From Solirubrobacterales bacterium (GTDB taxonomy: Bacteria; Actinomycetota; Thermoleophilia; Solirubrobacterales; Solirubrobacteraceae), in assembly GCA_038257095.1 (NCBI GenBank), contig JBBSJQ010000016.1:30417-94416 (forward strand): a stretch of DNA of 64,000 nucleotides, read 5' to 3'. The first letter of the stretch is position 1, and each line of letters starts with the position of its first letter. The position numbers were made by a program, and so were the translations under genes. Below, in pieces: positions 11,754 to 46,500 of the stretch. The notes under the pieces are model-generated. The model was not told where the DNA came from. It saw only the letters and a list, made by a program, of their open reading frames with translations, and searched no databases.

Positions 11754-11775
11754 CTATGGAGTCTCCGTCGTGAGC

Positions 11776-11792: not shown

Positions 11793-11815
11793 CAGTCGAG
11801 GCTCGCCGGCTCGAT

Positions 11816-13366: not shown

Positions 13367-13421
13367 CTGTCTCTCTCCTCCGTTCGAGCAACGTGCTCGC
13401 CCTCTTAGATGGTCCTTGCGG

Positions 13422-18085: not shown

Positions 18086-18102
18086 ACTTTCTCCTTTGAG
18101 GG

Positions 18103-21255: not shown

Positions 21256-21258
21256 TAG
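21242..21258. promoter_or_regulatory. Operator candidate O3 ATAATGTTCGACATTAG
   Basis: At the divergent CoA-transferase/ACAD promoter. Minus strand reads TAATGT-8 nt-ATG(21243). Confidence 0.6.
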
Positions 21259-21320
21259 CAGGGAAGGGCGGTGTTGGTCCTCAGTCCTTCTTTAGGCCTA
21301 CGCACCAATCGGGAGTACGA

Positions 21321-23360: not shown

Positions 23361-24173
23361 CTAGATGCGGCGGAGGAGATCGGCGATCGCGGCTGTGATC
23401 AGTTCTGGGCGACGCAGATGCGCGACGTGACCCTGGCCTTCGAGTGGCCGTAGTTCCGCGTCGGGCGCGGCTTCCACGATGCGCCTCGCGGTGTCGGCCA
23501 TGCCGGTCGGGCTTCGCGTCCCGAGGAGGACGGTCATGGGGAACGGGACGGCCCCGAGTGCCTCGTAGGGCACACGCTCTCGTAGCCATGCCCGGCACTC
23601 GCGCTCCAACGTGCCGCGGGCTTCCGACGCCGCCGTCCACTCGGCGCCCCCCGGCATGCCGTCGACGAGATCGCGCGGGACGCCGACGACGTCCGCGAAG
23701 AACATGGGAAGCATCTCGTCGTCCGGCGCGGTCCGCTCAAGGTCCTCCAAACGGTCCAAGGCTGCCTCGTCGTACCGCGGGTTGTCCGAGTCGAGCGGTT
23801 CGTACAGGACTGCCGCGGAGGGACGAGCCCCGTCGGCGATCGCGCTCAAGGTGCACCGTGCTCCCCAGGAGTGCGCGACGATGACCGCGTCCTCCCCCGC
23901 GGCCTCGAGGACCGCGGCGATGTCCTGCGCCTCGGCACGCATCGAGTAGGCGTCCGCTCGATCCTCCGCGCTCAAGCCTCGTCCGCGACGATCCATCACG
24001 AACGCCTCGATCCCTGGCGGGAGGTCCGCGATCACCGCATCCCAGCAGCGGCCGTCGGAGGCGCTGCCGTGGACGAAGACGGCGGGTCGCCCCGAGCCGC
24101 TGCGTCGGACGCCGATCGGCGTCCCGTCGGGCGAGCGGACGCGCTGGACACCGACCCGTCCGGACGCGCTCAC
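23361..24173 (-). CDS. Alpha/beta hydrolase
   Basis: VFVHGSASDG, nucleophile elbow VAHSWGA, C-terminal GQGHVAHL. GTG 24173 in GTGA overlap with the upstream stop. Confidence 0.8.
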   Translation of the reverse strand: MSASGRVGVQRVRSPDGTPIGVRRSGSGRPAVFVHGSASDGRCWDAVIADLPPGIEAFVMDRRGRGLSAEDRADAYSMRAEAQDIAAVLEAAGEDAVIVAHSWGARCTLSAIADGARPSAAVLYEPLDSDNPRYDEAALDRLEDLERTAPDDEMLPMFFADVVGVPRDLVDGMPGGAEWTAASEARGTLERECRAWLRERVPYEALGAVPFPMTVLLGTRSPTGMADTARRIVEAAPDAELRPLEGQGHVAHLRRPELITAAIADLLRRI

Positions 24174-24544
24174 GCCCAGCGTCCCTCCAGCGGCCCGTCG
24201 TTCCAGACCTCGACGATCTGGCCGCCGGTCACACGGAAGACCTCCAGACCGGCCAGGTTTCGCGTCGTCCCGTCGTGAAGCTCGATGTGACACTGATAGA
24301 CGATCGCCACGTGCTCGTCGTCCGCGTCGGCCACCACCACGGGGAGCGTGAAGTGCATCTCTGACGAAGCGTCAAGGTGGTCCTCGATCCGCCGTCGCGC
24401 CTCAGCGCGCGACTGGACGACGACATCGTCTACGCCGTGCCGCACGACCGCGTCCCCGAGCAGCTCGTCGGCAAGGTCCAGGTCCCGCTCGTTCCAGACG
24501 CGCAGGTTGTAGAGCTCGACCACCTCGCGTGCCGTGCGACTCAC
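24170..24544 (-). CDS. NTF2/SnoaL-like small protein
   Basis: 124 aa, VVELYNLRVWNERDLDLADELL...VFRVTGGQIVEVWN pattern. GTG 24544 in GTGA overlap. Confidence 0.6.
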   Translation of the reverse strand: MSRTAREVVELYNLRVWNERDLDLADELLGDAVVRHGVDDVVVQSRAEARRRIEDHLDASSEMHFTLPVVVADADDEHVAIVYQCHIELHDGTTRNLAGLEVFRVTGGQIVEVWNDGPLEGRWA

Positions 24545-25599
24545 CGGTAGACCGCCACCGCGTCGCATTCCTCGATCGCGGCGATGCTCCGCTCGATCAG
24601 CCGCAGACAGAGTTCTCGGGCCCGACCCGGCAGCTGGTCCCACCCACGGATCGCGATGACCGGGTACAGAAGCAGGAAGGACACAGCGAAGCGATAGTCG
24701 CGCCAGGCCTCCTCGAAGCTCGGGCCGTCCGCTCCATGTCGCTGGAGGGCGTCGAGGTACTGCCGCACGAACCTCTCATCGCGACCGGCCCGGACCTCGC
24801 GCGTCATGCCCTGGCTGACCAGGTAGCCGATGTCCACCAGGCCACTGGCCCTGGCAATCAGCTGGTAGTCGACGATCGCGATCTGGTCCCCGGAGAAGAA
24901 GATGTTGTCCGCTCGGATGTCCCCGTGAATGAGCGTATCGCGCTCCGTCAGGGCGTCGAGCGCCGGGGCGACCCGTTCAGGGAACGCCGCGGCGTGCCCT
25001 GCGACCCCGGGCGGGATCGGTTCGCGAGCCGTCGAGCGATAGACCTCCCACCCCTCGGAGAACAGCAGCGGAAAGGTCTCTCGAAGCAGCGGCGAGTCCA
25101 TCGTCGGGAACCGCCGCGGGACGTCGCCGCTCCGTGCGGGGTCGGCCGACCACGCGTGCAGTCCGGCCAGCTGCTCGATGCATTGCTCCATGCGCTCGGC
25201 GGGGAGTCCGGCGTAGTGATCGCCGTTGTCCCAGCCGCCGAGATCCTCGAGGATCAGCAGGAAGTCGCTGGAGCCGTCGACCGTCGAGGCGAAGTAGGTG
25301 CGTGGCGCGCGCAGCGGCACGTGGGCTGACACGTCGCGGTAGAACGCGACCTCCCGCGCATAGCCGCCCATCGCGTCGATCACCTGCCGCACCGCGGTCG
25401 TGGTGGGCAGCTTGGCGATCAGACTCCGCGGGACGCCACGTCCTTCGAGGCGGAGCCGGTAGAGCTCCGAGGAGAATCCGGTGTCCAGCGCGATCCGCTC
25501 GGCCTGGACCCCGGTGACGACGCATGCCACGTCGTCACCGCGGAGGAGCCTCGTCAGCCACGCGGGGTCGAGGTCGGTGACGCTTCGAGGAACGGTCAT
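24541..25599 (-). CDS. Phosphotransferase (APH/choline-kinase-like kinase fold)
   Basis: Brenner motif LIHGDIRADNIFF and downstream IVDYQL. Confidence 0.75.
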   Translation of the reverse strand: MTVPRSVTDLDPAWLTRLLRGDDVACVVTGVQAERIALDTGFSSELYRLRLEGRGVPRSLIAKLPTTTAVRQVIDAMGGYAREVAFYRDVSAHVPLRAPRTYFASTVDGSSDFLLILEDLGGWDNGDHYAGLPAERMEQCIEQLAGLHAWSADPARSGDVPRRFPTMDSPLLRETFPLLFSEGWEVYRSTAREPIPPGVAGHAAAFPERVAPALDALTERDTLIHGDIRADNIFFSGDQIAIVDYQLIARASGLVDIGYLVSQGMTREVRAGRDERFVRQYLDALQRHGADGPSFEEAWRDYRFAVSFLLLYPVIAIRGWDQLPGRARELCLRLIERSIAAIEECDAVAVYR

Positions 25600-25609: not shown

Positions 25610-27184
25610 CTACGCTGCGTCTGGCGCGAAGAAGCGGGCGGGGCTTCCGGCCTGGTCCGCGTCGGCGACGACCTGCTTGAGCAGCGGTGCGGGCCGATAC
25701 CGGTCGTCTCCGGTGTGCCGCTGGAGCGCCTCGAGCGTCCCGAGGACCCGGTCGACCCCGATGGCGTCCGCCCACGCGAACGGACCGCGGGGGTGGTTCA
25801 GCGCCAGAACCAGCCCGGTGTCGACGTCCTCGTGGCTGCCGACGCCCTCGGTCACGGCGAAGCACGCCTCGTTGACGATCTGGGAGACGATACGTCCGAG
25901 CACGAGCCCGGGGGCATCCCCGACGAGGAGCGTGTGCTTACCCAGGTCGCCGAAGAACCGCTCGAGAACCACGACGAGATCGTCAGGCGTCCCCGGGCGA
26001 CGTGTGAGCTCGACGAGCTTCGCGGCATCGAACGGCGCCAGCGCGTGGAAGCCCACCGCTCTCCCGGTCTCGTCGAGCTCGCGGAGCGAACCGACATCGC
26101 ACAGGACCGCACGAGGGCCGTCAGGCAGAGCGCCGGAGCGGTGGGACCGGCAATCCAGGACCAGGTCGGCACCTCCGTCGCCGACGGCCCAGCCGGCCGC
26201 CGCCGCCGCGTCACGTAGGGCATCGGCGAGCGCGCCGTCGCCGACGACGGCGACTCGACCTCCCTGGCCGCTCGACTCCGGAGCCGGCGGATCGGCCGGG
26301 CGATGGTCTCCGTCGCGGTAGTCGTAATAGCCGCGCTGGGACTTCCGTCCGTGCTTGCCGGCCGCGACATATCGCTCCGCGATCGGCGAGGGCCGCCACC
26401 GAGGCTCGCCGAAGCTCTGGTCGTAGAAGCTCTTCGCGACCTCGAGCCCGACGTCGATGCCAACGAGATCCGAGAGCTCGAAGGGTCCCATGCGGAACCC
26501 TCCTCCCAGACGCATCGCCTTGTCGATGTCCTCGATGCTCGCGAGCCCGTCGGAGAGTGACTTGAGCGCCTCGAGCAGGTACGGGCGGTTGGTGCGGTTG
26601 ACGATGAAGCCGGGACCGTCCTTGGCGATGATCACGGACTTGCCCATGGCCTCGCCCGTCGCCGCGGTCACGGCGAGCGCGTCTGCGTTCGTGTCCTCCC
26701 CCGCGACGACCTCGAGGAGACGCATCACGGGCGGCGGGTTGAAGAAGTGCATACCGGCGACGCGCCCGGGATGAGCCGAACCGGCGGCGATGGCGGCGAC
26801 GAGCAGCGACGAGGTGTTGGTCGCGATCACGCACGTGGAGCTGACGATTGCGTCGAGCGACGCGACCAGATCGCGCTTCATGGGTAGCGACTCCGGGATG
26901 GCCTCTACGACCAGCTCGCACGCCGCGAGTGCGGCGAGATCGGAGACCAGCTCGAGTCGCCCGTACGCCGCGTCGGCCTCGGACGCCTCGAGCTTCCCCT
27001 TCCCCACGAGCTTGTCGAAGTCGGCCCGCATTCGGGTCGAGGCACGCTCCCCCGTCGCGACGTCCGCGTCGAACAGCAGCGTCCGGGCGCCCGAGCGACA
27101 TGCGAGCTGCGCAATCCCCGCGCCCATCGTTCCGGCGCCGATGACGCCTACGACCTGCGCGGGAGCAGCAGTTTGGTCAGTCAT
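25610..27184 (-). CDS. 3-hydroxyacyl-CoA dehydrogenase, long form with extra C-terminal domain (PaaH-like architecture)
   Basis: VGVIGAGTMGAGIAQ, HFFNPPPVM, PGFIVNRTNRPYL. ATG 27184 preferred over TTG 27190. Confidence 0.85.
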   Translation of the reverse strand: MTDQTAAPAQVVGVIGAGTMGAGIAQLACRSGARTLLFDADVATGERASTRMRADFDKLVGKGKLEASEADAAYGRLELVSDLAALAACELVVEAIPESLPMKRDLVASLDAIVSSTCVIATNTSSLLVAAIAAGSAHPGRVAGMHFFNPPPVMRLLEVVAGEDTNADALAVTAATGEAMGKSVIIAKDGPGFIVNRTNRPYLLEALKSLSDGLASIEDIDKAMRLGGGFRMGPFELSDLVGIDVGLEVAKSFYDQSFGEPRWRPSPIAERYVAAGKHGRKSQRGYYDYRDGDHRPADPPAPESSGQGGRVAVVGDGALADALRDAAAAAGWAVGDGGADLVLDCRSHRSGALPDGPRAVLCDVGSLRELDETGRAVGFHALAPFDAAKLVELTRRPGTPDDLVVVLERFFGDLGKHTLLVGDAPGLVLGRIVSQIVNEACFAVTEGVGSHEDVDTGLVLALNHPRGPFAWADAIGVDRVLGTLEALQRHTGDDRYRPAPLLKQVVADADQAGSPARFFAPDAA

Positions 27185-27186
27185 GC

Positions 27187-27960
27187 TCAACGCCCCTTCC
27201 AGACGGGGTCGCGACGCTCGGCGAAGGACACGGCACCTTCGCGCGCATCCTCCGACCCGGTCACGGGAGCGACGATTGTCGCCTGGTTCTCCCAGAACGC
27301 AGCGGTGTCCCAGTCGTGCACGCTCTTGAGGACCTCCTTGGAGGCGACCAGTGCGAGCGGGCCGTTGATCGAGATCGCCGCGGCCAGCGCAAGGGCGGCC
27401 TCAAGCGCTCCGCCCGGCTCGGCGACCTCATCGATTAGGCCGATCTCCGACGCCTTCTCCGCGCTGATGAGGTCGCCGGTCAGCACCAGGCGCATGGCGG
27501 CACCGTAGGACACACGCTGCGGAAGCCGCAGCAGCGCGCCCCCGGCCGCGACCAGCGACCGCTTGACCTCCGGGACGCCGAGCTTCGCGTCTTTGGACGC
27601 CACGATCAGGTCCGCGGCGAGCGCGATTTCCAGGCCGCCGGCAACCGCGAAGCCCTCGATCGCCGCGATGAGCGGCTTGCGCGGGGGCTGTTCGACGATC
27701 CCTGCAAAGCCGCGGCCATCGATCCACGGGCGCTTCCCTCCTGCGGCGAAGGCCTTGAGGTCCATACCGGCGCAGAACCCCTTGCCGTTACCGGCCAGGA
27801 CGCCGACCGAGAGGCTCGGATCGTCATCGAGCTCGGTGATCGCTGCGGCCAGCGCCTCGGCGAGCTCGTAGTTGACAGCGTTGCGCTGTTCGGGACGGTT
27901 GAGCGTGATGACGAGCACGCTGTCGCGGCGCTCCGTCAGGATGGGGGCTTCCGGTGTCAT
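27187..27960 (-). CDS. Enoyl-CoA hydratase
   Basis: ITLNRPEQRNAV, GNGKGFCAGMDLK. ATG 27960 behind AGGAGAC; the track ORF N-terminus is an artefact. Confidence 0.9.
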   Translation of the reverse strand: MTPEAPILTERRDSVLVITLNRPEQRNAVNYELAEALAAAITELDDDPSLSVGVLAGNGKGFCAGMDLKAFAAGGKRPWIDGRGFAGIVEQPPRKPLIAAIEGFAVAGGLEIALAADLIVASKDAKLGVPEVKRSLVAAGGALLRLPQRVSYGAAMRLVLTGDLISAEKASEIGLIDEVAEPGGALEAALALAAAISINGPLALVASKEVLKSVHDWDTAAFWENQATIVAPVTGSEDAREGAVSFAERRDPVWKGR

Positions 27961-27979: not shown

Positions 27980-28780
27980 TCAGTTGCCGGTGAAGACCGG
28001 CATGCGGCGCTCGGCGAACGCCTTGACCGCCTCGGCGAAGTCGGTGGACTCCGCCCGGCGTTGCTGCTCGACGGCCTCGGCTTCGAGGACCTTGGCGAGG
28101 GGTAGTGCCCCTGCTTCCGACTGAAGCCGCTTGGTGGCGGCGAGCCCGGCGGGCGCTCCGGCCGCCAGGCGGGACGCGAGCGCCCCCACCTTCTCGGTGA
28201 GCTCACCGTCGGGGTGCACCCGGTTGGCAAGGCCCCATCGCAACGCCATGTCGGCGTCGACGCGCTCTCCGAGGAGCAGCATCTCTGACGCGCGCGCGTA
28301 CCCGATGCGCTCGGGAAGCAACTGCGAGACGCCGCCGTCCGGGCCCAGCCCCAGCTTCGCGAAGGACAGCTGCAGGAAGGCGCTCTGCGCGAGCACGATG
28401 AGATCGCAGGCGACGGCGATCGAGCACCCCATGCCGATGGCCGGGCCGTTTACCGCCGCGATCACCGGCTTAGGCATCTCGCGCAGCGCGAGGATCAGCG
28501 GGACGTAGCGCTCGCGGATCCGACGACCAAGATCGGGGTAGCCCTCCGCGGTCACCGTGCGTTTGCCCTTGAGGTCTGCGCCTGCGCAGAACGCGCGGCC
28601 GGCACCGGTCAGCACGACTGCCCGCACCTCCGGGTCCTCGGCGACCGCAAGCACCGCGTCGCGGAGACCGATCCCGAGATCGTCGTTCAGCGCGTTGAGC
28701 GCGTCTGGCCGGTTCAGGACGATCGTGGCGACGGCCCCGTCGCGCCGGACGAGAACCGCCCCGTCGTCGGCTGCGCTCAC
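27980..28780 (-). CDS. Enoyl-CoA hydratase
   Basis: IVLNRPDALNAL, LTGAGRAFCAGADLK. GTGA overlap with the thiolase stop. Confidence 0.9.
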   Translation of the reverse strand: MSAADDGAVLVRRDGAVATIVLNRPDALNALNDDLGIGLRDAVLAVAEDPEVRAVVLTGAGRAFCAGADLKGKRTVTAEGYPDLGRRIRERYVPLILALREMPKPVIAAVNGPAIGMGCSIAVACDLIVLAQSAFLQLSFAKLGLGPDGGVSQLLPERIGYARASEMLLLGERVDADMALRWGLANRVHPDGELTEKVGALASRLAAGAPAGLAATKRLQSEAGALPLAKVLEAEAVEQQRRAESTDFAEAVKAFAERRMPVFTGN

Positions 28781-29964
28781 CCGAGCTCACCGCCGACGAT
28801 GGATACGAACGAGACGCAGCCCCCGGGCCGTCCGCCGAGGTTGTGCGTCAGCCCGAGCTTGGGGTTCTCTAGCTGGCGGTCGCCAGCCTCACCTCGAAGC
28901 TGCAACCAGCACTCGAGGAGCATGCGCAGCCCGGTCGCCCCGATCGGGTGACCGAACGACTTGAGCCCGCCGTCAGGGTTGATCGGGAGGTCGCCGTCGA
29001 GGTCGAAGCGACCTGCCAGCACGTCCTTCCATCCTTCGCCGCGCTCGGAGAACCCGAGGTCCTCCATCAGGACGAGCTCGGTCGGCGTAAAGCAGTCGTG
29101 GACCTCCGCCATCGAGATCTCGGTACGCGGGTCGGTGATGCCCGCTTGGCCGTAGGCGTCCTGCGCGCATCGTGTGACCTCGCGGAACGTCGTGTAGTCG
29201 TACGTCGGGTCCATCGGACCGTCAGCAGGACCGGCGACGAACGACAGCGCCTTGACGTAGATGGGCGAATCGGTGTACTTGTGCGCGTCCTCGGCCCGGA
29301 CGATCAACGCGCACGCCGCACCATCCGAGACCCCGGAGCAGTCGAAGATCCCGAGCTGCCCCGCGATGAGCGGCGAATTGGTGATTGTCTCCTTCGCGAC
29401 CTCCTTCTGGAACTGCGCTCGGCCGTTCTTCGCTCCGTTGACGTGGTTCTTGTAGGCGATGTGCGTCATCACTTCGCGCATCGTGGCCTCGTCGACCCCG
29501 AAGCGGTCGCAGTACGCCGGCGCGAGGAGGGAGAACACCGCGGGAGCAGAGAGCTCCGGGTTCGTCCCGTCCCCGGCGGGTGCAGGAACGACGAGACCGG
29601 AGAAGCCTGAGTCCTTCAGCTTCTCGACGCCGAGCGCCATCACGCAGTCGTACGCCCCGGACGCGACGGCGTAGCACGCGTTGCGCACGGCTTCGGACCC
29701 CGTCGAGCAGTAGTTCTCGACCCGGGTCACGGGCTTGTAGTCGAGCTTGAGCGGACGGCTGAGCGTCAGACCGGAGACGCCTGAGCCCATGGTCCCGAGC
29801 CAGTACGCATCGATGTCATCGACGGTCGCTCCCGGGGTGGACGCCAGACATTCCTTGAACGCGTCGACGATCAGGTCGTCGCTCGATCGGTCCCAGTGCT
29901 CGCCGAACGGCGTGCAGCCCATTCCGACGATTGCGACGCGGTCGCGAATCCCGTGGCTCGCCAT
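28777..29964 (-). CDS. SCP2-type (Ltp-like) thiolase with intact Cys nucleophile
   Basis: ENYCSTGSEAV, HDCF, GGLKSFGHPIGATG. ATG 29964 is 2 nt after the upstream stop. Confidence 0.85.
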   Translation of the reverse strand: MASHGIRDRVAIVGMGCTPFGEHWDRSSDDLIVDAFKECLASTPGATVDDIDAYWLGTMGSGVSGLTLSRPLKLDYKPVTRVENYCSTGSEAVRNACYAVASGAYDCVMALGVEKLKDSGFSGLVVPAPAGDGTNPELSAPAVFSLLAPAYCDRFGVDEATMREVMTHIAYKNHVNGAKNGRAQFQKEVAKETITNSPLIAGQLGIFDCSGVSDGAACALIVRAEDAHKYTDSPIYVKALSFVAGPADGPMDPTYDYTTFREVTRCAQDAYGQAGITDPRTEISMAEVHDCFTPTELVLMEDLGFSERGEGWKDVLAGRFDLDGDLPINPDGGLKSFGHPIGATGLRMLLECWLQLRGEAGDRQLENPKLGLTHNLGGRPGGCVSFVSIVGGELG

Positions 29965-29966
29965 GT

Positions 29967-31358
29967 CTAGACCTCGTCCTTCGGCTCGGTCCCGGAGTGC
30001 GCTACCCGAGCTTTCCAGAAGTAGTTGTGAACGCCGTGCGCCGTGTAGAGGCGTCGGAAGGTCATCTCCATTCGCGTGCCGATCGCGACATCGGCCGGGT
30101 CGGCGTCGGTCGCCTGACAGATCAGCCGGCCACCCCCGTCGAGGTCCAGCACGATGTTGATCACGGGTGGCGAGAGCGAGAACGCCAACCGGTCCACCGT
30201 GAAGGTTGCGACGGTCCCGAGTTGCTCCGCGAGGCGGACCGGCTCCATCTCGTCGACCGTGCGGCAGTTCGAGCACACGCGCTGCGCCGGCATATGCACG
30301 TGTGAGCACGCAGTGCAGCGGCTCCCGACCAGGCCGAACTTCCACTCCTGGGACCGGGCCGATGGCGGCCCGGCGGGACGGTCGGGCTCCGGGCGACGCG
30401 GCGGCTCCCTCTCGAGCATGCCGCGCCATGTCAGATACGTGCCGTACGGGATGTCGCGGAGCGCAGGCTCCTCCGCGCGAGCCGCTGCCGCACGGTCCGT
30501 GCAACGCAGCAGGATCGCGTCACACCCGTCGGCGGCGACCACCAGGAGGATGGTCTGACCGGGCTCCGCCTCATCGAGGGCGGCGGCGAGGAGCAGCCCG
30601 GGATCGGCGGCGCCGGTGTAGCCCACGCCCGGATGACGTTCGACGGAAGTCGTGCCGCCGAGGCGACGAGCGGCGCTCCTCGCGGTCCTCAGGTGTGGCG
30701 AGCTGACCACGACGTGGTCAGCCTGCTCCACGCCGGCGGCGACGAGGCAGCGCGCGGCCACGTCCTTCACCATCGGTCCGTAGATCTCCGCGCCGAAGCG
30801 TTCCTCCCAGAGCGCACTGGTCGACGTTCCAGGAGCCCGCCAGCGGTCCAGGAACTCCGAGGTCGCGGACGCCTCCCCGATGATCTCCGCGACCGCTGCG
30901 GACGGCTCGCCGAAGACGAACGCGGCCGCGCCGTCTCCGCCGTCGCGCTCGTCTCCTGAGCCCGGGAGGCCGGTCCGCATGTCCGCCAGCACGACCAGTC
31001 CGCCCGAGGCGCTGCCGGCGCGGAGCGCGCCGACGGTCCCGCGGACGGAACCCGCCAAGTCGACGGCGAACGCCTCGTGCGGGAGGTTGAGTGCCGCGTG
31101 GATCGCCGACGCGTTGGTCTTGTCGGTATAGGCGGGCGCCGTCGTGGCGAAGTACAGGTTCGGCTCCGGAGTGGTGCCGGCGAGGGCGCGACGGGCGGCC
31201 TCGACCCCCATGGTCGTGGTGTCCTCGTCATACGAGGCAACCGAGCGGGAGCCCTTGAGCGTGCCGCTCCCGAGGACGGCGGCCACGTCGGACCGAGAGA
31301 GCCGACCACGAGGGACGTACGTCCCGTAGCCGACGATGGCTGCGCGCGGACTAGGCAT
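29967..31358 (-). CDS. Fusion protein: HMG-CoA-synthase/KAS-III-like thiolase-fold domain (no canonical Cys) + C-terminal DUF35 Zn-ribbon/OB domain
   Basis: IVGYGTYVPRGRL, SYDEDTTTMGVEAARRAL (HMGS-like). First Cys only at about residue 204. C-terminal CTACSHVHMPAQRVCSNC plus OB segment. ATG 31358 overlaps the upstream stop by 8 nt. Confidence 0.7.
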   Translation of the reverse strand: MPSPRAAIVGYGTYVPRGRLSRSDVAAVLGSGTLKGSRSVASYDEDTTTMGVEAARRALAGTTPEPNLYFATTAPAYTDKTNASAIHAALNLPHEAFAVDLAGSVRGTVGALRAGSASGGLVVLADMRTGLPGSGDERDGGDGAAAFVFGEPSAAVAEIIGEASATSEFLDRWRAPGTSTSALWEERFGAEIYGPMVKDVAARCLVAAGVEQADHVVVSSPHLRTARSAARRLGGTTSVERHPGVGYTGAADPGLLLAAALDEAEPGQTILLVVAADGCDAILLRCTDRAAAARAEEPALRDIPYGTYLTWRGMLEREPPRRPEPDRPAGPPSARSQEWKFGLVGSRCTACSHVHMPAQRVCSNCRTVDEMEPVRLAEQLGTVATFTVDRLAFSLSPPVINIVLDLDGGGRLICQATDADPADVAIGTRMEMTFRRLYTAHGVHNYFWKARVAHSGTEPKDEV

Positions 31359-32520
31359 CCGCGGAGAGGACGACGGTGACGTGTGAGGAGAGAATGCCGC
31401 CCTCGACATGAACCAGCGCGTTCTTGGTCCCTTCGACCTGTCGACGGCCGCACTCGCCGCGGATCTGCCGGGCCCCCTCGACGAGATCGAAGAGTCCGCC
31501 TGCCGCTCCGGCGTGTGCATGCGACAGCATGCCGCCATGGGTGTTCACTGGGAGCTGCCCGCCGAGGCGGGCGTGCCCGGCCTCGAAGAACGCTCCGCCC
31601 TCCCCCGGGCCGACGAAGCCCAGGTCCTCCAGCTCGATGATCGGGACGATGGTGAAGCAGTCGTAAAGCAACGCTACGTCAATGTCGTCGGTCGTCAGCT
31701 CGGCCATGGCCAACGCATCGCGACCTGAGTCCCGAGCCCCGGTGTGGGTCAGGGACTTGGCCATGACTAGGTGCTCGTGCGTGTGCTTCTCGCCGATGCC
31801 GCGGACGTAGACCGGCTGCTTGGCGAGCTGCTCCGCTCGCTCGGTCGAGGTCACGATCAGCGCCCCGCCCGCGTCGGAGATCAGGCAGCAGTCGAGCATG
31901 TGCAGCGGCTCGCTGATCATCTTCGAGGACAAGACGTCCTCGACGGTGATGGGCGTCTGCATGTGGGCGTTCTCGTTCAACGAGGCGTGATGTCGACAGG
32001 TGACGGCGACCGACGCCATCTGCTCGCTCGTGGTCCCGTACTCGTGCATGTGACGCTGCGCGACCATGCCGTAGATGCCCGGCAGCGGCGGTCCGTAGGG
32101 GTTCTCGTACTGGGGATGCCCGACCCCGGTCAAGCGCTTGACGGCTTCGTCGCGGCCGATACCGGTCCGTCGGTTCTCGCCGACGACGATCAGCACCGTG
32201 GACGCGGTTCCGGCTGCGATCGCGGTGGCGGCGTGGTGGACCATCGCGCCCGGTGTCGCTCCGCCGACGATCATGGATGAGGAGAACCGAGGCTTGATGC
32301 CGAGGTACTCGCACAGGACGGACCCGAGCATGAAGTAGTCGTCGGTGAAGGAGTACGCGGTGAGGAGGCCGTCGATCTCAGTTCGATCGATGCCGGCATC
32401 CGCGATTGCGTTCATTGCGGCTTCGGCGTTCAGGCCGAGACCGGTGCGGTCCGGGACCTTGCCGATGCGGGACTCGCCGACTCCGGCGATCGCCACCCGG
32501 GAGCGGAGCCTCGCGGTCAT
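31351..32520 (-). CDS. Thiolase-fold protein lacking the nucleophilic Cys (Ltp2-like, possible aldol-lyase)
   Basis: IVGGATPG aligns with NYCSTGS of the neighbouring thiolase. Retains LYDCFT and VNTHGG. ATGA overlap with the DUF35 stop. Confidence 0.75.
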   Translation of the reverse strand: MTARLRSRVAIAGVGESRIGKVPDRTGLGLNAEAAMNAIADAGIDRTEIDGLLTAYSFTDDYFMLGSVLCEYLGIKPRFSSSMIVGGATPGAMVHHAATAIAAGTASTVLIVVGENRRTGIGRDEAVKRLTGVGHPQYENPYGPPLPGIYGMVAQRHMHEYGTTSEQMASVAVTCRHHASLNENAHMQTPITVEDVLSSKMISEPLHMLDCCLISDAGGALIVTSTERAEQLAKQPVYVRGIGEKHTHEHLVMAKSLTHTGARDSGRDALAMAELTTDDIDVALLYDCFTIVPIIELEDLGFVGPGEGGAFFEAGHARLGGQLPVNTHGGMLSHAHAGAAGGLFDLVEGARQIRGECGRRQVEGTKNALVHVEGGILSSHVTVVLSADA

Positions 32521-32933
32521 GCGGCCACCTCCTCGAGCGAGAACTGCGGAAGGCCGATCTCGTCCGTGAGCTTCTCGAACTGGACGGTGACCTTGGAGCC
32601 GATGGAGACGTCGCCAGGCTCGCAATCGAGGATGTTCGCCACGACGCGGACGTCCTCATCGAGTTCGATCAGCGCGACCACATAAGGCACGGCGTCGGCG
32701 AAGGCGGGCGTCGCGGCACGGTGAACGACGGTAAAGGCGTAGACCTCGCCCTTGCCGGAGAGCTCGACCCATCCCGACTTGTCGCTCCAGCACTCGGTGC
32801 AGAGGAGCCGTGGCGGAAATCGCACCACGCCGCAGGCTGAACACTGCTGCGTCTTGAACTCCCCCTGCGCCGCCGCGGCGAAATACGGCCGCGAGTCGGC
32901 ATCGAGTCGGGGGATCGGTCGTTCGACGTTCAC
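32517..32933 (-). CDS. DUF35 protein (Zn-ribbon + OB fold, acyl-CoA-associated)
   Basis: CSACGVVRFPPRLLCTEC, then GEVYAFTVVH...VVALIELDE OB segment; 138 aa. Confidence 0.85.
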   Translation of the reverse strand: MNVERPIPRLDADSRPYFAAAAQGEFKTQQCSACGVVRFPPRLLCTECWSDKSGWVELSGKGEVYAFTVVHRAATPAFADAVPYVVALIELDEDVRVVANILDCEPGDVSIGSKVTVQFEKLTDEIGLPQFSLEEVAA

Positions 32934-32955: not shown

Positions 32956-32972
32956 ATACTGTGCGACAACCA
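32956..32972. promoter_or_regulatory. Operator candidate O4 ATACTGTGCGACAACCA (degenerate, tandem with O5)
   Basis: Shares one nt with O5; centres are 16 bp apart. Confidence 0.4.
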
Positions 32973-32988
32973 TAATGTCGGACAGTAT
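32972..32988. promoter_or_regulatory. Operator candidate O5 ATAATGTCGGACAGTAT
   Basis: In the 65-nt gap upstream of the DUF35 gene. Confidence 0.6.
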
Positions 32989-32998
32989 AAGGGAGAGG

Positions 32999-34147
32999 CT
33001 ACACGTCGCCGGACGCCAGCGCCTTCGCGATGATGTTGCGCTGGATCTCGTTGGTCCCGGCGACGATTTCGTTGAGTTTGGATTCGCGCCAGTACCGTTC
33101 CATCCCGTACTCGACCATGTACGAGTAGCCGCCGAGGATCTGCATCCCCCGGCTCGCGCATCGAGTCCCGACCTCGGAGCCCGCGACCTTCGCCATCGAG
33201 GCGTCCGCGTGGCAGGGAAGCCCACGCTCGAGCTTCCACGCGGCACGGAAGACCAGAAGCCGAGCCTGCTCGATCTCGATCACCATGTCGGAGAGCATGT
33301 GGGCGACGGCCTGCTGCTCGATGATCGGCTTGCCGAACTGGACACGCTCCTTCGCGTAGCCCAGCGCCAGGTCGAGGACACCCTGTGCGAGCCCGACACT
33401 CTGCGCGCCGTTCGTGATTCGCTCGTGGTCCAGGACGCCGATCACAGCGGCCATGCCGCGGTTGACCTCGCCAACCGTGTTGGCCACCGGCACCCGCACC
33501 TCGTCGAGGAAGACCTCACACGAATGGGTCCCCTGACCCGCGAGCTTCTTCAGCGGCTGAACGGTCACGCCGTCGGCGCCGCGCGGGACGAGGATGACCG
33601 TCATGCCTCGCGACGGTGAGGCGTCGGGATCCGTCCGGGTGAACACGAACAGGTAATCCGCGACGTCCGCCCCGGTGACGAACACCTTCTGCCCGCTGAT
33701 CACCCACTTCTCGCCTTCCTGGCGCGCGCGTGTCGACAGCCCGGTGAGGTCTGATCCGGCGCTCGGCTCACTGAGGGCTAGCCCGAAGCGCAGATCTCCT
33801 GCGGCCACCGCGGGCAGAAGCGCCTTGCGCTGCTCCTTGCTCCCGAGGAGCGAGATCGAGCGGGAGCAGGTGAGCGTCGGCATGAGGGCGTAGAGCAGCG
33901 AGGCGCTCGCGCGCCCCACCTCCTCGACCGCGACCACCAGCATGAGGTCGCTTGCGCCGCTCCCCCCGTAGTCCTCGCCGAAAGCCATCCCGGTCAGACC
34001 GAGGTCGGCCATACCCGCGTACAACTCGTCCACGGGTCGTGTACCGGCGTCCAGCTCTGCCACCACGTCGATCGGCGCCTCACGCTCGAAGAAGCGGCGG
34101 AGCGTCGCGCGGAAGTCGACGAGTTCGTCGTCAAGCTCGAAGTTCAT
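32999..34147 (-). CDS. Acyl-CoA dehydrogenase
   Basis: LSEPSAGSDLTG, QFGKPI, YWRESKLNEIVAGTNEIQ. Confidence 0.9.
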   Translation of the reverse strand: MNFELDDELVDFRATLRRFFEREAPIDVVAELDAGTRPVDELYAGMADLGLTGMAFGEDYGGSGASDLMLVVAVEEVGRASASLLYALMPTLTCSRSISLLGSKEQRKALLPAVAAGDLRFGLALSEPSAGSDLTGLSTRARQEGEKWVISGQKVFVTGADVADYLFVFTRTDPDASPSRGMTVILVPRGADGVTVQPLKKLAGQGTHSCEVFLDEVRVPVANTVGEVNRGMAAVIGVLDHERITNGAQSVGLAQGVLDLALGYAKERVQFGKPIIEQQAVAHMLSDMVIEIEQARLLVFRAAWKLERGLPCHADASMAKVAGSEVGTRCASRGMQILGGYSYMVEYGMERYWRESKLNEIVAGTNEIQRNIIAKALASGDV

Positions 34148-34158: not shown

Positions 34159-35325
34159 TCAGGTGCTGCGGAGGTCGCGGAAGAAGGCGCGGAGGTCATC
34201 GACGAGCAGCTGTGGTTGCTCGAGCGCTGGGAAGTGGCCGCCGCGGGGCATGTCGGTCCAGCGAACGATGTCGTAGACACGCTCGGCCCACTCCCGTGGC
34301 GGTGACACGATCTCCTTCGGGAACGCGGCGACGCCGGTCGGGACCGTGATGCGCGCACCTTGCGCCATCCGCCACGGGTTGTGGCGCTCCTCGTAGTAGA
34401 GCCGAGCCGCGGACAACGCCGACTGCGTGTGCCAGTAGATGGAGATGTTGGTCAGTAGGTCGTCGCGACTGATGCACTGCTCGAGATCGCCCTCGGAGTC
34501 CGTCCAGCGCTGGAACTTCTCGAGGATCCAAGAGGCCAGACCGACGGGCGAGTCGTTGAGGGCGAAGCCGAGCGTCTGCGGCTTCGTGCCCTGCAGTTCG
34601 TAATACGCCATCTCCGTGCGCTGCCACTTGCCCATGGTTTTCATCCAGGCGCTCTCCGCCTCGGAGAGCTCCGCGCGGTCCTTCGGGTGCGGGGAGACGC
34701 CCACGAGGTTGAGATGCAGTCCGACGACGTGGTCGGGCTCGTCGAAGGCAACCCGGGACGCGACCATGTTCGCCCAGTCGCCGCCGTGCGCGCCGTACCG
34801 GTCGTAACCGAGGACCTCGGTCATCAGCCGGTGCGCGAGCCGCCCGATGCGGGCGACGTTGACGCCGCGCTCGCCCGTCGCCGGCGAGAACCCGTAGCCC
34901 GGGAGCGAGAGGAGGACGACGTCGAAGGCGTCGGTCGGATCCCCGCCGAACCGGCCCGGATCAGCGAGCGGCTCGATCACGTGCAGCATCTCGGTGTGGC
35001 TGCTGGGCCACCCGTGACTCAGCAGGAGCGGGAGCGACGACGGCCCGTTGCCCTTGAGGTGGACGTAATGCAGTGTCTGGCCGTCGATCTCGACCGTGAA
35101 CTGCGGGTGAGAGTTCAAGCGACCCTCGGCTGCCCGCCAGTCGTACCCATCGCGCCAGTGGTCAACGAGCGCGCGGAGGGCGTCCACGTCGGTGCCGTAG
35201 TCGGATCCCGCATCCGCGATCGTCTCAGGCCACCGCGTCGCCTCGAGCCGGCGTGCGAGATCGGCGAGGTCGGCGTCCGGGATGTCGACGCGGAACGGTC
35301 GCGGAGCGGCACCCCGCGCAGTCAT
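34159..35325 (-). CDS. Epoxide hydrolase (EH N-terminal domain + alpha/beta hydrolase)
   Basis: FRVDIPDADLADLARRLEATRWPE, LLLSHGWPSS (HGWP motif). Confidence 0.85.
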   Translation of the reverse strand: MTARGAAPRPFRVDIPDADLADLARRLEATRWPETIADAGSDYGTDVDALRALVDHWRDGYDWRAAEGRLNSHPQFTVEIDGQTLHYVHLKGNGPSSLPLLLSHGWPSSHTEMLHVIEPLADPGRFGGDPTDAFDVVLLSLPGYGFSPATGERGVNVARIGRLAHRLMTEVLGYDRYGAHGGDWANMVASRVAFDEPDHVVGLHLNLVGVSPHPKDRAELSEAESAWMKTMGKWQRTEMAYYELQGTKPQTLGFALNDSPVGLASWILEKFQRWTDSEGDLEQCISRDDLLTNISIYWHTQSALSAARLYYEERHNPWRMAQGARITVPTGVAAFPKEIVSPPREWAERVYDIVRWTDMPRGGHFPALEQPQLLVDDLRAFFRDLRST

Positions 35326-35512: not shown

Positions 35513-36727
35513 ATGGTCGATGCTGTGATCTGCGAACCCCTGCGAACCCCTGTTGGCCGATTCGGAGGGGTGTTCCGAGACGTACCCGCGGCGACCCTGG
35601 CGGCCGTTGTCGTCAAGGAGCTCGCGTCGCGCGCCGGCGTCTCGGGGGGCGACGTCGACGACGTGGTCTTCGGCCAGTGCTACCCGTCGGGCGAAGCGCC
35701 GGCGATCGGCCGCATCGCCGCGCTCGACGCCGGGCTGGGCGTTGGGACGGCGGGCCTTCAGATCGACCGTCGCTGCGGGTCGAGCCTGCAGGCGGTCCTC
35801 TACGCCGCCATGCAGATCCAGACCGGCGTCAGCGACCTCATCATCGCCGGTGGCGCGGAGAGCATGAGCCAGGTCGAGCTCTACTCGCCGAACGCACGCT
35901 GGGGCGCGAAGTCCGGCGGACTGATGCTGCACGACCGGCTGATCCGGGCGCGCGAGACGGCGGGCGGAGAGGACTTCCCCGTACCCGGCGGGATGCTCGA
36001 GACGGCCGAAAACCTCCGCCGCGCGTACGGCATCGAGCGGGAGGCACAGGATCGGCTCGCGCTCCGGTCTCATCAGCGCGCCACCGAGGCCCAGGCACGC
36101 GGCGCCTTCGACGACGAGATCGTGCCAGTGACCGTCACCACCCGGCGCGGCTCCGACGTGGTGTCGATCGACGAACACCCACGGGCAGACACCTCGCTGG
36201 AGCAGCTGGCGGGGCTTCGAGCTGTTCGCGGTCGCGAGGACGCCGAGTCCACGGTGACCTCCGGCAACGCGAGCGGCCAGAACGACGGCGCCTCCGCGTG
36301 CATCGTGACGTCGCGCGAACGCGCCGAGCAGCTCGGACTTCGGCCAATCGCCCGTCTGGCGAGCTGGGCCGTCGCGGGCGTCCCGCCGGCCACCATGGGC
36401 ATCGGTCCGGTGCCGAGCACCGAGCGTGCCCTGTCCCGCCTCGGACTCGGGCTCGCCGACATGGACCTCATCGAGCTGAACGAGGCCTTCGCCGCCCAGG
36501 TGCTCGCCTGCACGGCGGTTTGGGGCTTCTCCGACCAAGACTTCGACCGCGTCAACGTGAACGGCTCCGGGATCTCGCTCGGCCACCCTGTCGGGGCGAC
36601 CGGTACCCGCATCCTCGCTACGCTCCTGCGCGAGATGGACCGTCGCGAGGCCCGCTACGGTCTGGAGACGATGTGCATCGGAGGAGGACAAGGCCTCGCC
36701 GCGGTCTTCGAGCGGATTCCGGCCTGA
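35513..36727 (+). CDS. Acetyl-CoA C-acyltransferase (FadA-type thiolase)
   Basis: IDRRCGSSLQAV nucleophile, NGSGISLGHPVGATG, CIGGGQG. SD TAAGGAG. Confidence 0.95.
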   Translation: MVDAVICEPLRTPVGRFGGVFRDVPAATLAAVVVKELASRAGVSGGDVDDVVFGQCYPSGEAPAIGRIAALDAGLGVGTAGLQIDRRCGSSLQAVLYAAMQIQTGVSDLIIAGGAESMSQVELYSPNARWGAKSGGLMLHDRLIRARETAGGEDFPVPGGMLETAENLRRAYGIEREAQDRLALRSHQRATEAQARGAFDDEIVPVTVTTRRGSDVVSIDEHPRADTSLEQLAGLRAVRGREDAESTVTSGNASGQNDGASACIVTSRERAEQLGLRPIARLASWAVAGVPPATMGIGPVPSTERALSRLGLGLADMDLIELNEAFAAQVLACTAVWGFSDQDFDRVNVNGSGISLGHPVGATGTRILATLLREMDRREARYGLETMCIGGGQGLAAVFERIPA

Positions 36728-36732: not shown

Positions 36733-37716
36733 ATGTCCCGCGTGCTCGTCGTCCCTCAGCACGGCGACCCCGAGGTCCTCGAGTGGCAGGACCGCCAGGC
36801 TCCCGAGCCGCGCCCCGACGAGGTCGTGGTGCAGACGCGCGCGGTCGGACTGGCGTGGAGCGACCTGTTGCAGACGCGCGGTGCGTACGCGGGCGGTGGA
36901 CCGGTCCCGCCGTTCACGCCTGGGTACGAGATCGTCGGGGACGTCGTCTTGACGGGGGCGGAGACCACCGGGCTCACGGTGGGGGAGCGCGTCCTCGCCA
37001 TGCTGCCCGGCCCGGGGGCGCTTGCGGAGCACGTCGCAGCGCCGGCTGCGGCCTTCCGCTCGGCCCCGGCGCAGTTGAGCGACACCGAGGCGGCCGCCTT
37101 CCCGGTTTCGTTCCTGACCGCGGACGCGGCGCTCGTGACAGCAGGCGGCTTCACGCCGGGCCACTCGGTGCTCGTGCACGCGGCCGCGGGTGGGTTCGGC
37201 AATGCGGGCGTGCAGCTGGCCCGCGCCTACGGTGCGTCACTCGTCCTCGCGACGGCGGGCTCCCCCGACAGGTGTCGCCACGCCGAGTCGATGGGCGCCG
37301 ACCGGGCGTGCGGCTACGACGAGTTCAGGGCGATGGTCGCGGAGGCGACGGGAGGATTCGGCGTCGACATCGTGCTCGAATCGGTCGGCGGGACGACGTT
37401 CGACGACAGCGTGAGTAGCGTCAAGCGACTTGGCCGGGTGATCTCGGTCGGTGCCAGCGGTGGCGAGCGACCCGAGAAGCTCAAGCTGCCCGTGCTGTGG
37501 CACAAGAGCATCCTCGTCGGAGGCGTCCATATCCTGAACTGGATGCTCAACGAGCCCGAGCTTCTCGAACCGTCCTGGACGAGGGTGCTCGACGCCGTCG
37601 CGAGAGACACGGTGGCGCCGGTCGTGGGTCGCACGTTCGCGGCGGACGATGTCCAACAGGCGTTCGCGGCGCTGGGCGGGCGCGGCGTTGCCGGGCGCGT
37701 CGTCGTGCAGTTCTGA
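36733..37716 (+). CDS. Quinone oxidoreductase / zinc-type alcohol dehydrogenase superfamily (MDR)
   Basis: PGYEIVGDV, VHAAAGGFGNAGVQLA. The rest of the 1009-aa track ORF is an artefact. Confidence 0.85.
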   Translation: MSRVLVVPQHGDPEVLEWQDRQAPEPRPDEVVVQTRAVGLAWSDLLQTRGAYAGGGPVPPFTPGYEIVGDVVLTGAETTGLTVGERVLAMLPGPGALAEHVAAPAAAFRSAPAQLSDTEAAAFPVSFLTADAALVTAGGFTPGHSVLVHAAAGGFGNAGVQLARAYGASLVLATAGSPDRCRHAESMGADRACGYDEFRAMVAEATGGFGVDIVLESVGGTTFDDSVSSVKRLGRVISVGASGGERPEKLKLPVLWHKSILVGGVHILNWMLNEPELLEPSWTRVLDAVARDTVAPVVGRTFAADDVQQAFAALGGRGVAGRVVVQF

Positions 37717-37897: not shown

Positions 37898-38605
37898 TCA
37901 GCCGGAGTGCCGCTCGACGTAGTCGAGGTGCTTGACCATTGCCTTGTCGGCGGCGGCGCTGTCGCCCTTCTCGATCGCGCGGACGATCGCGACGTGCTGC
38001 CGGAAGGTGTCCTGCGCCGCCTTCTCGGTGAGGTCAGTCAGCGCCGGGTGCGCGAAGCCGTGCAAGCCTGCGACGAACGAGCTGAGCAAGCGGTTCCCTG
38101 ACGCCTCAGCGATCGTCGAGTGGAAGACGGCGTCAAGCTCGCCGACCTCGGGCGAGTCGAGCTCGAGCTCGCGCTCCTGATCGATGATCGAGCGGAGGTT
38201 GGCGACCTGCTCATCGGTCCGATTCATCGCCGCAAGCCGTGCAGCCGGGGCCTCGATCAGCCGACGCACGTGGTTGACCTCGGTCGGCTCAAGCCTGCCG
38301 AGCTGCAGGATCGCCGTCATCGACTCGTTGATGGTGGTGCCGAGCGCGTGATGATCGACGAGGTTGACGAAGCTCCCGCCACCCTTTCCGCTGACCTTGT
38401 GGATGAGGCCGGCGGACGCGAGAGCGCGGAGCGCTTCCCGGATGGTCGTCCGGCTCACCGCAAAGCTCGCCGCGAGCTGCGCCTCGCTCGGAAGCCGGTC
38501 GCCGGTCGCGAACTGTCCAGCGAGAATGCTCTGGCGGAGCTGCTCCTCGACCTGTGCGCGCGGACGCTGAACAGGTCGTGGAGCGAAGGTCGGTTCGCTG
38601 GTCAC
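37898..38605 (-). CDS. GntR family regulator, FadR subfamily (FCD effector domain), paralog 1
   Basis: LPSEAQLAASFAVSRTTIREALRALASAGLIHKVSGKGGGSFV winged HTH plus helical C-domain. Confidence 0.9.
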   Translation of the reverse strand: MTSEPTFAPRPVQRPRAQVEEQLRQSILAGQFATGDRLPSEAQLAASFAVSRTTIREALRALASAGLIHKVSGKGGGSFVNLVDHHALGTTINESMTAILQLGRLEPTEVNHVRRLIEAPAARLAAMNRTDEQVANLRSIIDQERELELDSPEVGELDAVFHSTIAEASGNRLLSSFVAGLHGFAHPALTDLTEKAAQDTFRQHVAIVRAIEKGDSAAADKAMVKHLDYVERHSG

Positions 38606-40471: not shown

Positions 40472-40483
40472 TAGGCTGGGCTG

Positions 40484-42508: not shown

Positions 42509-42520
42509 ACGTCATGTATG
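42492..42520. repeat. Conserved 29-nt element copy 2: GTGTACATCCGCTCCATACGTCATGTATG
   Basis: 25/29 identical to 6988-7016, same orientation, in the TetR/thioesterase divergent region. Confidence 0.5.
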
Positions 42521-46452: not shown

Positions 46453-46455
46453 TTA
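46439..46455. promoter_or_regulatory. Operator candidate O8 TTATTGTAGAACATTTA (minus strand AAATGTTCTACAATAA)
   Basis: In the mceF/SCP2 gap. Minus strand carries TTGACG-19 nt-TACAAT. Confidence 0.5.
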
Positions 46456-46500
46456 ACCGCGGAGCCGTCAAGCGCTGCGAGGAGCAGCTGGCGTCACTAT

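Follow-up and report, generated by a model that had tools for sequence, protein, structure and literature searches.

A run of four genes, g1 to g4, was analyzed on the minus strand of a 64,000-nt stretch of a Solirubrobacterales bacterium genome (GenBank assembly GCA_038257095.1, contig JBBSJQ010000016.1, positions 30,417 to 94,416, forward strand), which is called the window here and has a G+C content of ~69%. The four genes probably encode two separate thiolase-superfamily enzymes, each stapled by a DUF35 module, whose genes follow one another in a single operon within a catabolic island of beta-oxidation type under GntR control. The first pair consists of g1 (32517–32933, 138 aa), a stand-alone DUF35 protein with a C4 zinc ribbon and an OB fold, and g2 (31351–32520, 389 aa), an SCP2-thiolase fold without the nucleophilic Cys. 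The second consists of g3 (29967–31358, 463 aa), in which a domain resembling HMG-CoA synthase (HMGS) and PhlA is fused to a C-terminal DUF35, and g4 (28777–29964, 395 aa), a thiolase of the SCP2/archaeal type. Both pairs are of already described kinds, and the rare element is their side-by-side arrangement.

A preliminary description of this DNA had reported the four genes as one coupled run. The strand and coordinates were as claimed, and so were the three junctions when they were re-read from the sequence: g1 and g2 share an ATGA overlap, g2 and g3 overlap by 8 nt (ATGCCTAG), and g3 and g4 lie 2 nt apart. In turn, g4 overlaps the following enoyl-CoA hydratase gene by GTGA. The protein assignments of that description also held. 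The stand-alone DUF35 protein g1 carries CSAC31 and CTEC45 and matches the Pfam families zf-ChsH2 and OB_ChsH2_C; the thiolase fold of g2 reads IVGGATPG84 at the nucleophile position, where Gly87 aligns to Cys86 of g4; the 463-aa fusion protein g3 contains CTAC348 and CSNC362, and its first Cys is residue 204; and g4 has the NYCSTGS84, HDCF289 and GHPIGATG338 of a canonical SCP2-type thiolase.

The DUF35 protein g1 and the Cys-less thiolase fold g2

The Pfam matches of g1 reached 1.6e-12 for zf-ChsH2 and 3e-25 for OB_ChsH2_C, and its closest solved relatives were DUF35 domains that bind aldolases, those of ChsH2 (6OK1_B, 1e-21) and Shy (9MYR_B, 1.6e-17). In g2, Thiolase_C_1 was matched at 1e-57, and the match to Thiolase_N was far under the Pfam cut-off. 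Sequence matches of g2 in the PDB were 4U4E (1e-95), Ltp2 (6OK1_A, 4e-57) and CtSal (9MYR_A, 6e-55). The same three ranked first in a fold search with the AlphaFold model of g2 (pLDDT 82), which gave TM values of 0.86 to CtSal and 0.84 to Ltp2. The entry 4U4E is a structural-genomics "thiolase" from Sphaerobacter with no assigned function, and its motif is YDSF.

Residue conservation was read from an alignment of g2, 120 homologues (64–84% identical) and g4, with counts taken without g4 (n = 121). Gly87, which faces the nucleophile Cys86 of g4, was Gly in all 121 sequences. Y286-D287-C288-F289, which replaces the HDCF of g4, was equally invariant (121/121), and Y286 aligned to Y294 of Ltp2. 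H328 and H336 were also found in every sequence, and H334 was kept in 120/121; His336 sits at the position of the GHP histidine of thiolases. This clade was 58–84% identical across Actinobacteria, Betaproteobacteria and Alphaproteobacteria.

The neighborhood of g2 was scanned in one genome per species, which gave 80 loci (58–72% identity), mostly from Burkholderiales and Alphaproteobacteria, plus Gordonia, Conexibacter and Sporichthya. A g1-like DUF35 gene was present in 74/80 of these loci and stood directly upstream of g2 in 51/80. Of the 74 loci that extended far enough to show it, 64 had a MaoC hydratase gene directly downstream of the g2 orthologue. In the window the DUF35 gene both adjoins and overlaps g2.

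These observations point to a Sal/Ltp2-type aldolase. CtSal works with CtShy(DUF35) on the bile-acid side chain in Comamonas testosteroni (PDB 9MYR); a Gly stands in for the thiolase nucleophile, Tyr302 and Cys304 of its YDCY motif are the catalytic base and acid, and the enzyme is an efficient aldolase (2025, PMC12329534). The SCP2-thiolase fold, the replaced nucleophile, the Tyr in place of the HDCF His, and the Sal-type acid (Cys288) within Tyr-Asp-Cys were all found in g2, next to which lies the DUF35 gene g1, and the MaoC hydratase and aldehyde dehydrogenase of the CtSal pathway would have counterparts in a pathway here. Nevertheless, identity between g2 and CtSal was only 33%. Two small proteins, DUF35 and MaoC, are encoded here in place of the single Shy protein there; the zinc ribbon of g1 is C4 rather than C3H1; and the context in the window is not recognizable as a bile-acid cluster. 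Sal has Gln352, and Ltp2 the catalytic Tyr344, where g2 has the canonical thiolase His336 (PMC12329534).

With Ltp2-ChsH2(DUF35), the steroid C3 side-chain aldolase (6OK1), g1–g2 shared the absent nucleophile and the Tyr that comes first in YDxF, and the DUF35 of ChsH2 was the best solved match of g1. The second Tyr that serves Ltp2 as catalytic acid was not found: Ltp2 combines YDHF with Tyr344, whereas g2 combines YDCF with His336 at that position, and the two proteins were 36% identical. A third relative comes from an actinobacterium, Mycolicibacterium neoaurum, in which a stand-alone 138-aa DUF35 protein, ChsH4, works with the Sal-like aldolase Atf1 (PMC10398937). The neighbors there are a reductase and KstR3, and the likeness was judged from published features. 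Atf1 is reported to be 56% identical to Pseudomonas Sal1 (PMC10398937), while g2 was only 33% identical to CtSal, so g2 probably belongs to another clade than Atf1.

Two further catabolic systems, BbsAB (7PXP) and IpfDE (PMC9195938), also combine DUF35 with an SCP2-type thiolase-fold enzyme that cuts a bulky acyl-CoA. BbsB has a nucleophilic Cys where g2 has Gly87, and no pseudo-HMGS subunit is described for either system. Membership in BbsAB was rejected, for the NCBIfam equivalog models of BbsA and BbsB stayed under their cut-offs with g1 (52.5 vs. 250), g2 (155.5 vs. 750) and g4 (125 vs. 750).

Thus, g2 is a probable retro-aldolase of the Sal/Ltp2 type, and g1 is its predicted DUF35 staple. 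By homology to CtSal, Ltp2 and the PfACAT/HMGS-DUF35 system described below, we inferred how such a module could work. An acyl-CoA dehydrogenase (ACAD) would dehydrogenate the CoA ester, and the MaoC hydratase of the window (59124–59606) would make the 3-hydroxyacyl-CoA for g1–g2, in which a g2 dimer would be flanked by two g1 DUF35 subunits. Tyr286, acting as base, would take the proton of the 3-hydroxyl, the C2–C3 bond would break, and Cys288 would protonate the acyl-CoA enolate. Acetyl- or propionyl-CoA would be released together with an aldehyde or ketone, and the aldehyde dehydrogenase at 59659–61167 could oxidize an aldehyde product to the acid level.

Two other explanations were considered for g2. 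The first is that g2 runs another Cys-independent reaction through His336, either decarboxylating a malonyl- or 2-carboxyacyl-CoA or cleaving a 3-oxoacyl-CoA by a hydrolytic retro-Claisen reaction. His336 does occupy the GHP position, where Sal has Gln and Ltp2 has Tyr, H328 and H334 are conserved as well, and TbSLP, whose motif is also YDCF, weakly decarboxylates malonyl-CoA (PMC12329534). However, the conserved MaoC neighbor points to a 3-hydroxyacyl-CoA substrate, an aldehyde dehydrogenase gene adjoins the MaoC gene of the window, and the Tyr that replaces the HDCF His is the aldolase base in Sal (PMC12329534). We consider such a reaction unlikely.

The second gives this thiolase-fold subunit a non-catalytic or regulatory role, which would make g2 a pseudoenzyme as the N-domain of g3 is, or else a mere binder of CoA esters. 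The absence of the nucleophilic Cys and the sub-threshold Thiolase_N match would fit this, and so would TbSLP, in which malonyl-CoA decarboxylase activity is only a trace (PMC12329534). Against it stand the high identity of the clade over three bacterial classes, the conservation of Y286, C288, H328 and H336 in every sequence and of H334 in all but one, the hydratase gene that is nearly always alongside, and CtSal, which has the same dyad and is an efficient aldolase (PMC12329534). This role is therefore improbable.

If g2 is an aldolase, its clade, which spans three bacterial classes and is nearly always accompanied by DUF35 and MaoC, would carry thiolase-fold aldolases well beyond steroid side-chain degradation and would be a tractable target for new C–C-cleaving or C–C-forming biocatalysts. 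A literature search for the g2 clade found no description, only papers on steroid aldolases and the 2026 study of the P. fluorescens complex discussed below. Whether g1-g2-MaoC represents a widespread, uncharacterized clade of non-steroid thiolase-fold aldolases that use a Tyr-Cys-His active site appears to us about evenly balanced.

The fused HMGS-like protein g3 and the thiolase g4

The Pfam matches of g3 lay in its C-terminus (zf-ChsH2, 5e-7; OB_ChsH2_C, 5e-11). Its N-domain matched archaeal HMG-CoA synthase only in NCBIfam (PRK04262, 1e-36, under the cut-off) and in the PDB, where the sequence matches were 6ESQ_I (4e-20) and PhlA for the N-domain and 6ESQ_E (4.6e-11) and PhlB for the C-terminus. 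The protein comprises an HMGS/PhlA-like domain (~1–300) with the motifs IVGYGTYVPRGRL8 and SYDEDTTTMGVEAARRAL42, a low-confidence linker (~302–338) and the C-terminal DUF35. A fold search with its model (pLDDT 75) returned PhlA (9SKH/5MG5), archaeal HMGS (6ET9_I) and MucA (9VBT) at the top.

The catalytic tetrad of HMGS, E82/C114/H238/N270 in 6ESQ_I, aligned to T73/V105/S219/Y247 in g3. This loss was family-wide in the two columns read from 107 diverse relatives at ≤50% identity: the Glu-equivalent column contained no Glu, and the Cys-equivalent column consisted mainly of Leu or Val, Cys not being one of its six most frequent residues. The zinc ribbon cysteines C348/C351/C362/C365, by comparison, were conserved in >90% of the same relatives. 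NCBIfam models of HMGS scored g3 under their cut-offs (126.7 vs. 244 and 82.9 vs. 353). A true HMG-CoA synthase was ruled out by the missing tetrad and these scores.

The fusion itself is not a frameshift artifact, because full-length fused homologues of 450–470 aa (60–66% identity) are common in Conexibacter, in Solirubrobacteraceae genomes and in metagenomes. In an exhaustive HMMER search with g3, 555 clusters (50% identity level) scored under 1e-30; of the 150 best that were listed, most had lengths of 450–490 aa. The exact g3 sequence had no match in the contig index.

In g4, Pfam recognized Thiolase_N and Thiolase_C_1, and the NCBIfam model PRK06157 was passed with 608.7 bits (cut-off 403). 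The PDB matches 4YZO, 7YVY and 6ESQ_A ranged from 1e-54 to 1e-58. All catalytic residues were kept, namely Cys86, His289-Asp-Cys291-Phe and Gly-His339-Pro.

The association of g3 and g4 was examined in metagenome contigs, which gave 80 loci with a g3 relative (47–62% identity). A g4 homologue, 61–77% identical, lay immediately downstream of it in 73/80. Across these loci (L085–L164) the thiolase was consistently better conserved than the N-domain of g3 (61–77% vs. 46–62%), a pattern to be anticipated when a catalytic subunit has a pseudo-enzyme as its partner. A small g3 subclade (L093, L095 and L107) had no adjacent g4 though the contigs had room.

The closest described parallel is PfACAT/HMGS-DUF35 of Pseudomonas fluorescens, where a fused HMGS-DUF35 without the E-C-H-N tetrad accompanies an acetyl-CoA acetyltransferase (ACAT) with Cys, HDxF and GHx (Nat Commun 2026, PMC12960953). 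That complex cleaves acetoacetyl-CoA thiolytically and makes no HMG-CoA, and 1,001 bacterial HMGS/ACAT/DUF35 loci without biosynthetic neighbors were counted in the same study (PMC12960953). The sequence features of this type were found in g3 and g4: the HMGS::DUF35 fusion, the missing tetrad and an adjacent ACAT with its catalytic residues, again with no polyketide synthase (PKS) or non-ribosomal peptide synthetase (NRPS) gene among the annotated neighbors; the two systems were compared by description. Its authors regard the P. fluorescens pair as an evolutionary intermediate without a pathway, whereas the pair in the window stands among beta-oxidation genes, as do most g3 loci long enough to show flanking genes.

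Two g3-g4 settings recall the ibuprofen ipf genes. In Conexibacter sp. SYSU D00693 (L001, 5622–15922) and on plasmid pdjl-6-4 of Rhodococcus qingshengii (L168, 8118–16598), g3-g4 pairs stand behind a CoA ligase gene and genes for the alpha and beta subunits of a Rieske dioxygenase. The catabolic clusters around the ACAT/HMGS-DUF35 pair, in the window, in the g3 loci and in these ipf-like Rieske layouts, argue for an ordinary degradative role.

The residue states suggested that the N-domain of g3 is a catalytically dead scaffold and that g4 is its catalytic partner, an active thiolase. As in PfACAT/HMGS-DUF35, g4 would be held in a complex by the dead HMGS-like domain and the fused DUF35 of g3. 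After the adjacent ACAD, two crotonases and a 3-hydroxyacyl-CoA dehydrogenase (HADH) encoded downstream would supply a 3-oxoacyl-CoA, which g4 would thiolyse with Cys86 as the acyl-enzyme nucleophile and His289 and Cys291 as acid and base, together with His339.

Synthesis was weighed as well, since the nearest solved relatives of g3 are PhlA, archaeal HMGS and MucA: g3 and g4 might make HMG-CoA as a true thiolase/HMGS, or acetylate an aromatic acceptor as a C-acyltransferase of the PhlACB/MucABC type. The archaeal thiolase/HMGS/DUF35 complex contains the same three building blocks (6ESQ_I, 4e-20; 6ESQ_E, 4.6e-11; 6ESQ_A, 3e-54). However, mutation of the tetrad abolishes HMG-CoA formation in that complex (PMC12960953), and g3 lacks E-C-H-N. 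The HMGS here is dead and fused to DUF35, and the expected direction is degradative rather than toward HMG-CoA. In PhlACB and MucABC (5M3K, 9SKH, 9VBO), PhlA and MucA are HMGS-like without the tetrad and were top fold matches of g3. But PhlC and MucB, which acetylate small-molecule acceptors, have lost HDxF, whereas g4 keeps HDCF; DUF35 is a separate subunit there, and the genes lie in biosynthetic clusters. No PKS or NRPS was found among the annotated genes of the window, in which the annotated neighbors are beta-oxidation genes. The PhlACB/MucABC type was thus rejected on the HDCF of g4 and the lack of biosynthetic context, and a synthetic role of g3 and g4 of either kind is extremely improbable.

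Separate occurrence of the two pairs

The two 80-locus scans also bear on whether the four genes form one unit. No homologue of g3 or g4 was found in the g2 loci (0/80), and neither g1 nor g2 was found in the g3 metagenome loci (0/80), so that the pairs were apart in 160/160 scanned loci. Conexibacter sp. SYSU D00693 had two g3-g4 pairs in tandem and no g1-g2, and Rhodococcus opacus and Achromobacter had DUF35-g2-MaoC and no g3-g4. Besides the window, only two loci contained both pairs, one in Nocardioides endophyticus (L004) and one on a metagenome contig that resembles it (L167). The gene order in both was DUF35-g2-MaoC-g3-g4, and their accessory set was that of the window: an ACAD, a GntR/FCD regulator, a second ACAD, a quinone-oxidoreductase-like gene, an epoxide hydrolase and a divergent FadA. 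An obligate four-gene unit was ruled out by these scans. The overlap of g2 and g3 in the window arose where the MaoC gene sits in L004 and L167. Given the separate occurrence in the scans and only two further joint loci, the two modules are independent, and their tandem arrangement in an operon is rare and lineage-restricted.

The preliminary description had suggested a larger heteromeric machine for C–C cleavage. In its full form this would be one four-protein particle, in which two DUF35 modules staple the g2 dimer, the pseudo-HMGS g3 and g4, and intermediates pass between an aldolytic and a thiolytic site. The translational coupling of all four genes would fit such a particle; the DUF35 of the archaeal complex connects two distinct thiolase-fold dimers around a CoA site that they share (PMC12960953, PMC12329534); and the pair of pairs recurs in L004 and L167. 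However, the co-occurrence counts speak against it, a MaoC gene separates the pairs in L004 and L167, the two tandem g3-g4 pairs of Conexibacter do without g1-g2, and each DUF35 module is similar to those known for the class of its own partner. Aldolysis and thiolysis also act on different oxidation states of C3, which makes a direct hand-over unnecessary. A four-protein particle is therefore very unlikely. Equally doubtful is a mixed particle with shared CoA-binding chambers in the window lineage and the Nocardioides-type loci; if true, a single machine would let a beta-oxidation intermediate leave by aldolysis as well as by thiolysis.

Other claims of that description fared differently. A probable retro-aldolase and a thiolase are indeed combined in the locus. 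Both DUF35 modules do belong to the scaffold class that it named, with ChsH2 and Shy as solved relatives of g1 and 6ESQ_E and PhlB as those of g3. The missing catalytic Cys was borne out by alignment, which gave an invariant Gly87 in g2 and a tetrad-wide loss in g3, and its caveat that the g3 fusion might be a frameshift artifact was removed by the many full-length fused homologues. By contrast, the role of g2 as a nucleophile-less partner of the neighboring thiolase was not supported: it has the Gly and Tyr-Asp-Cys arrangement that is catalytic in CtSal, and its own DUF35 has aldolase-bound domains as best solved relatives. The composition had also not been recognized as described. Each half is in fact described, the first in Shy-Sal, ChsH2-Ltp2 and ChsH4-Atf1 and the second in PfACAT/HMGS-DUF35; for the tandem placement itself, a literature search for the four-gene combination found no description.

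Several points weigh against two independent modules of these kinds. The tight overlap of g2 and g3 could reflect more than shared regulation, and so could the joint presence of both pairs in three loci (the window, L004 and L167). The MaoC gene is not adjacent to g2 in the window. With 33% identity to Sal and 36% to Ltp2, g2 falls outside both of their clades, and its chemistry may differ because it retains His336, where Sal has Gln and Ltp2 has Tyr344. For 4U4E, its nearest solved relative, no function is known, and the motif there is YDSF. PfACAT/HMGS-DUF35 and Atf1/ChsH4 were compared by published features only.

If the two-module interpretation is correct, the labels "Acetyl-CoA acetyltransferase," "HMG-CoA synthase" and "OB-fold protein" for such genes would give way to a probable aldolase, a thiolase and a pseudo-enzyme scaffold.

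The surrounding island and its putative regulon

The same-strand run that contains g1–g4 has the order epoxide hydrolase, ACAD, g1–g4, two crotonases, HADH, EcKL/APH kinase, SnoaL-like protein and alpha/beta hydrolase. Its first gene encodes an EHN-type epoxide hydrolase (34159–35325, minus strand; Pfam EHN, 2e-35), with homologues in L004 (53% identity) and L167 (EHN family). The ACAD directly upstream of g1 (32999–34147, minus; Pfam Acyl-CoA_dh N, M and C) was 58% identical to an ACAD of the syntenic Nocardioides locus L004. Downstream of g4 lie the overlapping enoyl-CoA hydratase (crotonase) gene (27980–28780, minus; ECH_1, 1.7e-58), a second enoyl-CoA hydratase similar to EchA19 (27187–27960, minus; ECH_1, 1e-46; PRK08252, 362.7 bits vs. 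282) and the HADH, a PaaH-like two-module protein of 526 aa (25610–27190, minus; Pfam 3HCDH_N and 3HCDH; PRK08268, 498 bits). The EcKL/APH-type kinase (24541–25599, minus) and a SnoaL_2 protein (24170–24643, minus) follow. APH and SnoaL_2 genes were also found near DUF35-g2-MaoC in Rhodococcus opacus (L002, 1–2587), beside a P450, a ferredoxin and a reductase.

Beyond the run, a divergent FadA-type thiolase (35513–36727, plus; Pfam Thiolase_N and Thiolase_C; PRK06205, 677 bits) is followed by a quinone-oxidoreductase-like gene (36751–37716), and then by a GntR/FCD regulator and an acyl-CoA ligase. The MaoC (R)-hydratase (59124–59606, minus; Pfam MaoC_dehydratas, 3.5e-21) is 26 kb away from g2 and is the orthologue of the MaoC that follows g2 in other genomes, with 70% identity to the one in L004. 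It is the middle gene of an operon at 57919–61167 on the minus strand, between the aldehyde dehydrogenase directly upstream (59659–61167, minus; Pfam Aldedh, 2e-138) and an ACAD.

Each of these two sub-clusters adjoins a GntR/FCD regulator. Regulator 1 (37898–38605, minus; Pfam GntR and FCD) was 48–51% identical to regulators beside DUF35-g2 in L002, L004 and L005. Its paralogue, regulator 2 (61403–62137, plus), is divergent from the aldehyde dehydrogenase/MaoC operon, and the two shared 72% identity over 222 residues. Genes of the GntR/FCD type were likewise seen flanking DUF35-g2 in Rhodococcus opacus, Gordonia, L165, L004 and L167.

The 65-nt gap upstream of g1 contains an operator-like palindrome, ATAATGTCGGACAGTAT (32971–32989), with the consensus ATAnTGTCsGACAnTAT, which was spotted by eye and then tested statistically. 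Its core, TGTCNGACA, occurred 7 times in the window against 1.02 expected, and 7 copies were reached in 0/100 shuffles. The motif positions were 2170, 11780, 21244, 32976, 35429, 40347, 59612 and 62179, of which 21244 is the variant AATGTTCGACATT, associated with a CoA-transferase/ACAD. Every copy lies in a promoter or gene-start region. Other copies of the core stand in the interval from EHN to FadA, at the CoA-ligase gene start and just upstream of MaoC, and further ones precede genes for a P450, a flavin monooxygenase and an SDR. The same core was found in L004 (position 2328), between FadA and the DUF35 gene. A k-mer comparison of two intergenic regions was uninformative. The motif fits operators of the GntR family, and it would tie the flavin monooxygenase, the P450, the CoA-transferase/ACAD, g1–g4, EHN/FadA, the CoA ligase, MaoC and the SDR into one putative regulon.

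A block at 15562–21291 (minus) encodes a CoA-transferase III, an ACAD, an SDR, two 3-hydroxyacyl-CoA dehydrogenases and an ECH. It was colinear (50–70% identity) with 10691–17392 of the metagenome locus L166, directly downstream of DUF35-g2-MaoC. From this colinearity, the aldolase module seems to belong with the 15562–21291 block.

The island would act on a hydrophobic acid, and its context weakly suggests a branched, oxygenated or alicyclic lipid or terpenoid acid. Elsewhere in the window, an Mce-type lipid/steroid uptake operon (45206–55523, minus) encodes an ABC ATPase, at least four MlaD-domain proteins and an MlaE permease, and two EthR-like TetR regulators lie near it (40475–41188 and 41804–42511). 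An ORF of 380 aa (9403–10545, minus), between an amine-oxidase-like flavoprotein and a P450, had a coding-like G+C content at third codon positions (GC3) of 0.92 and no Pfam match.

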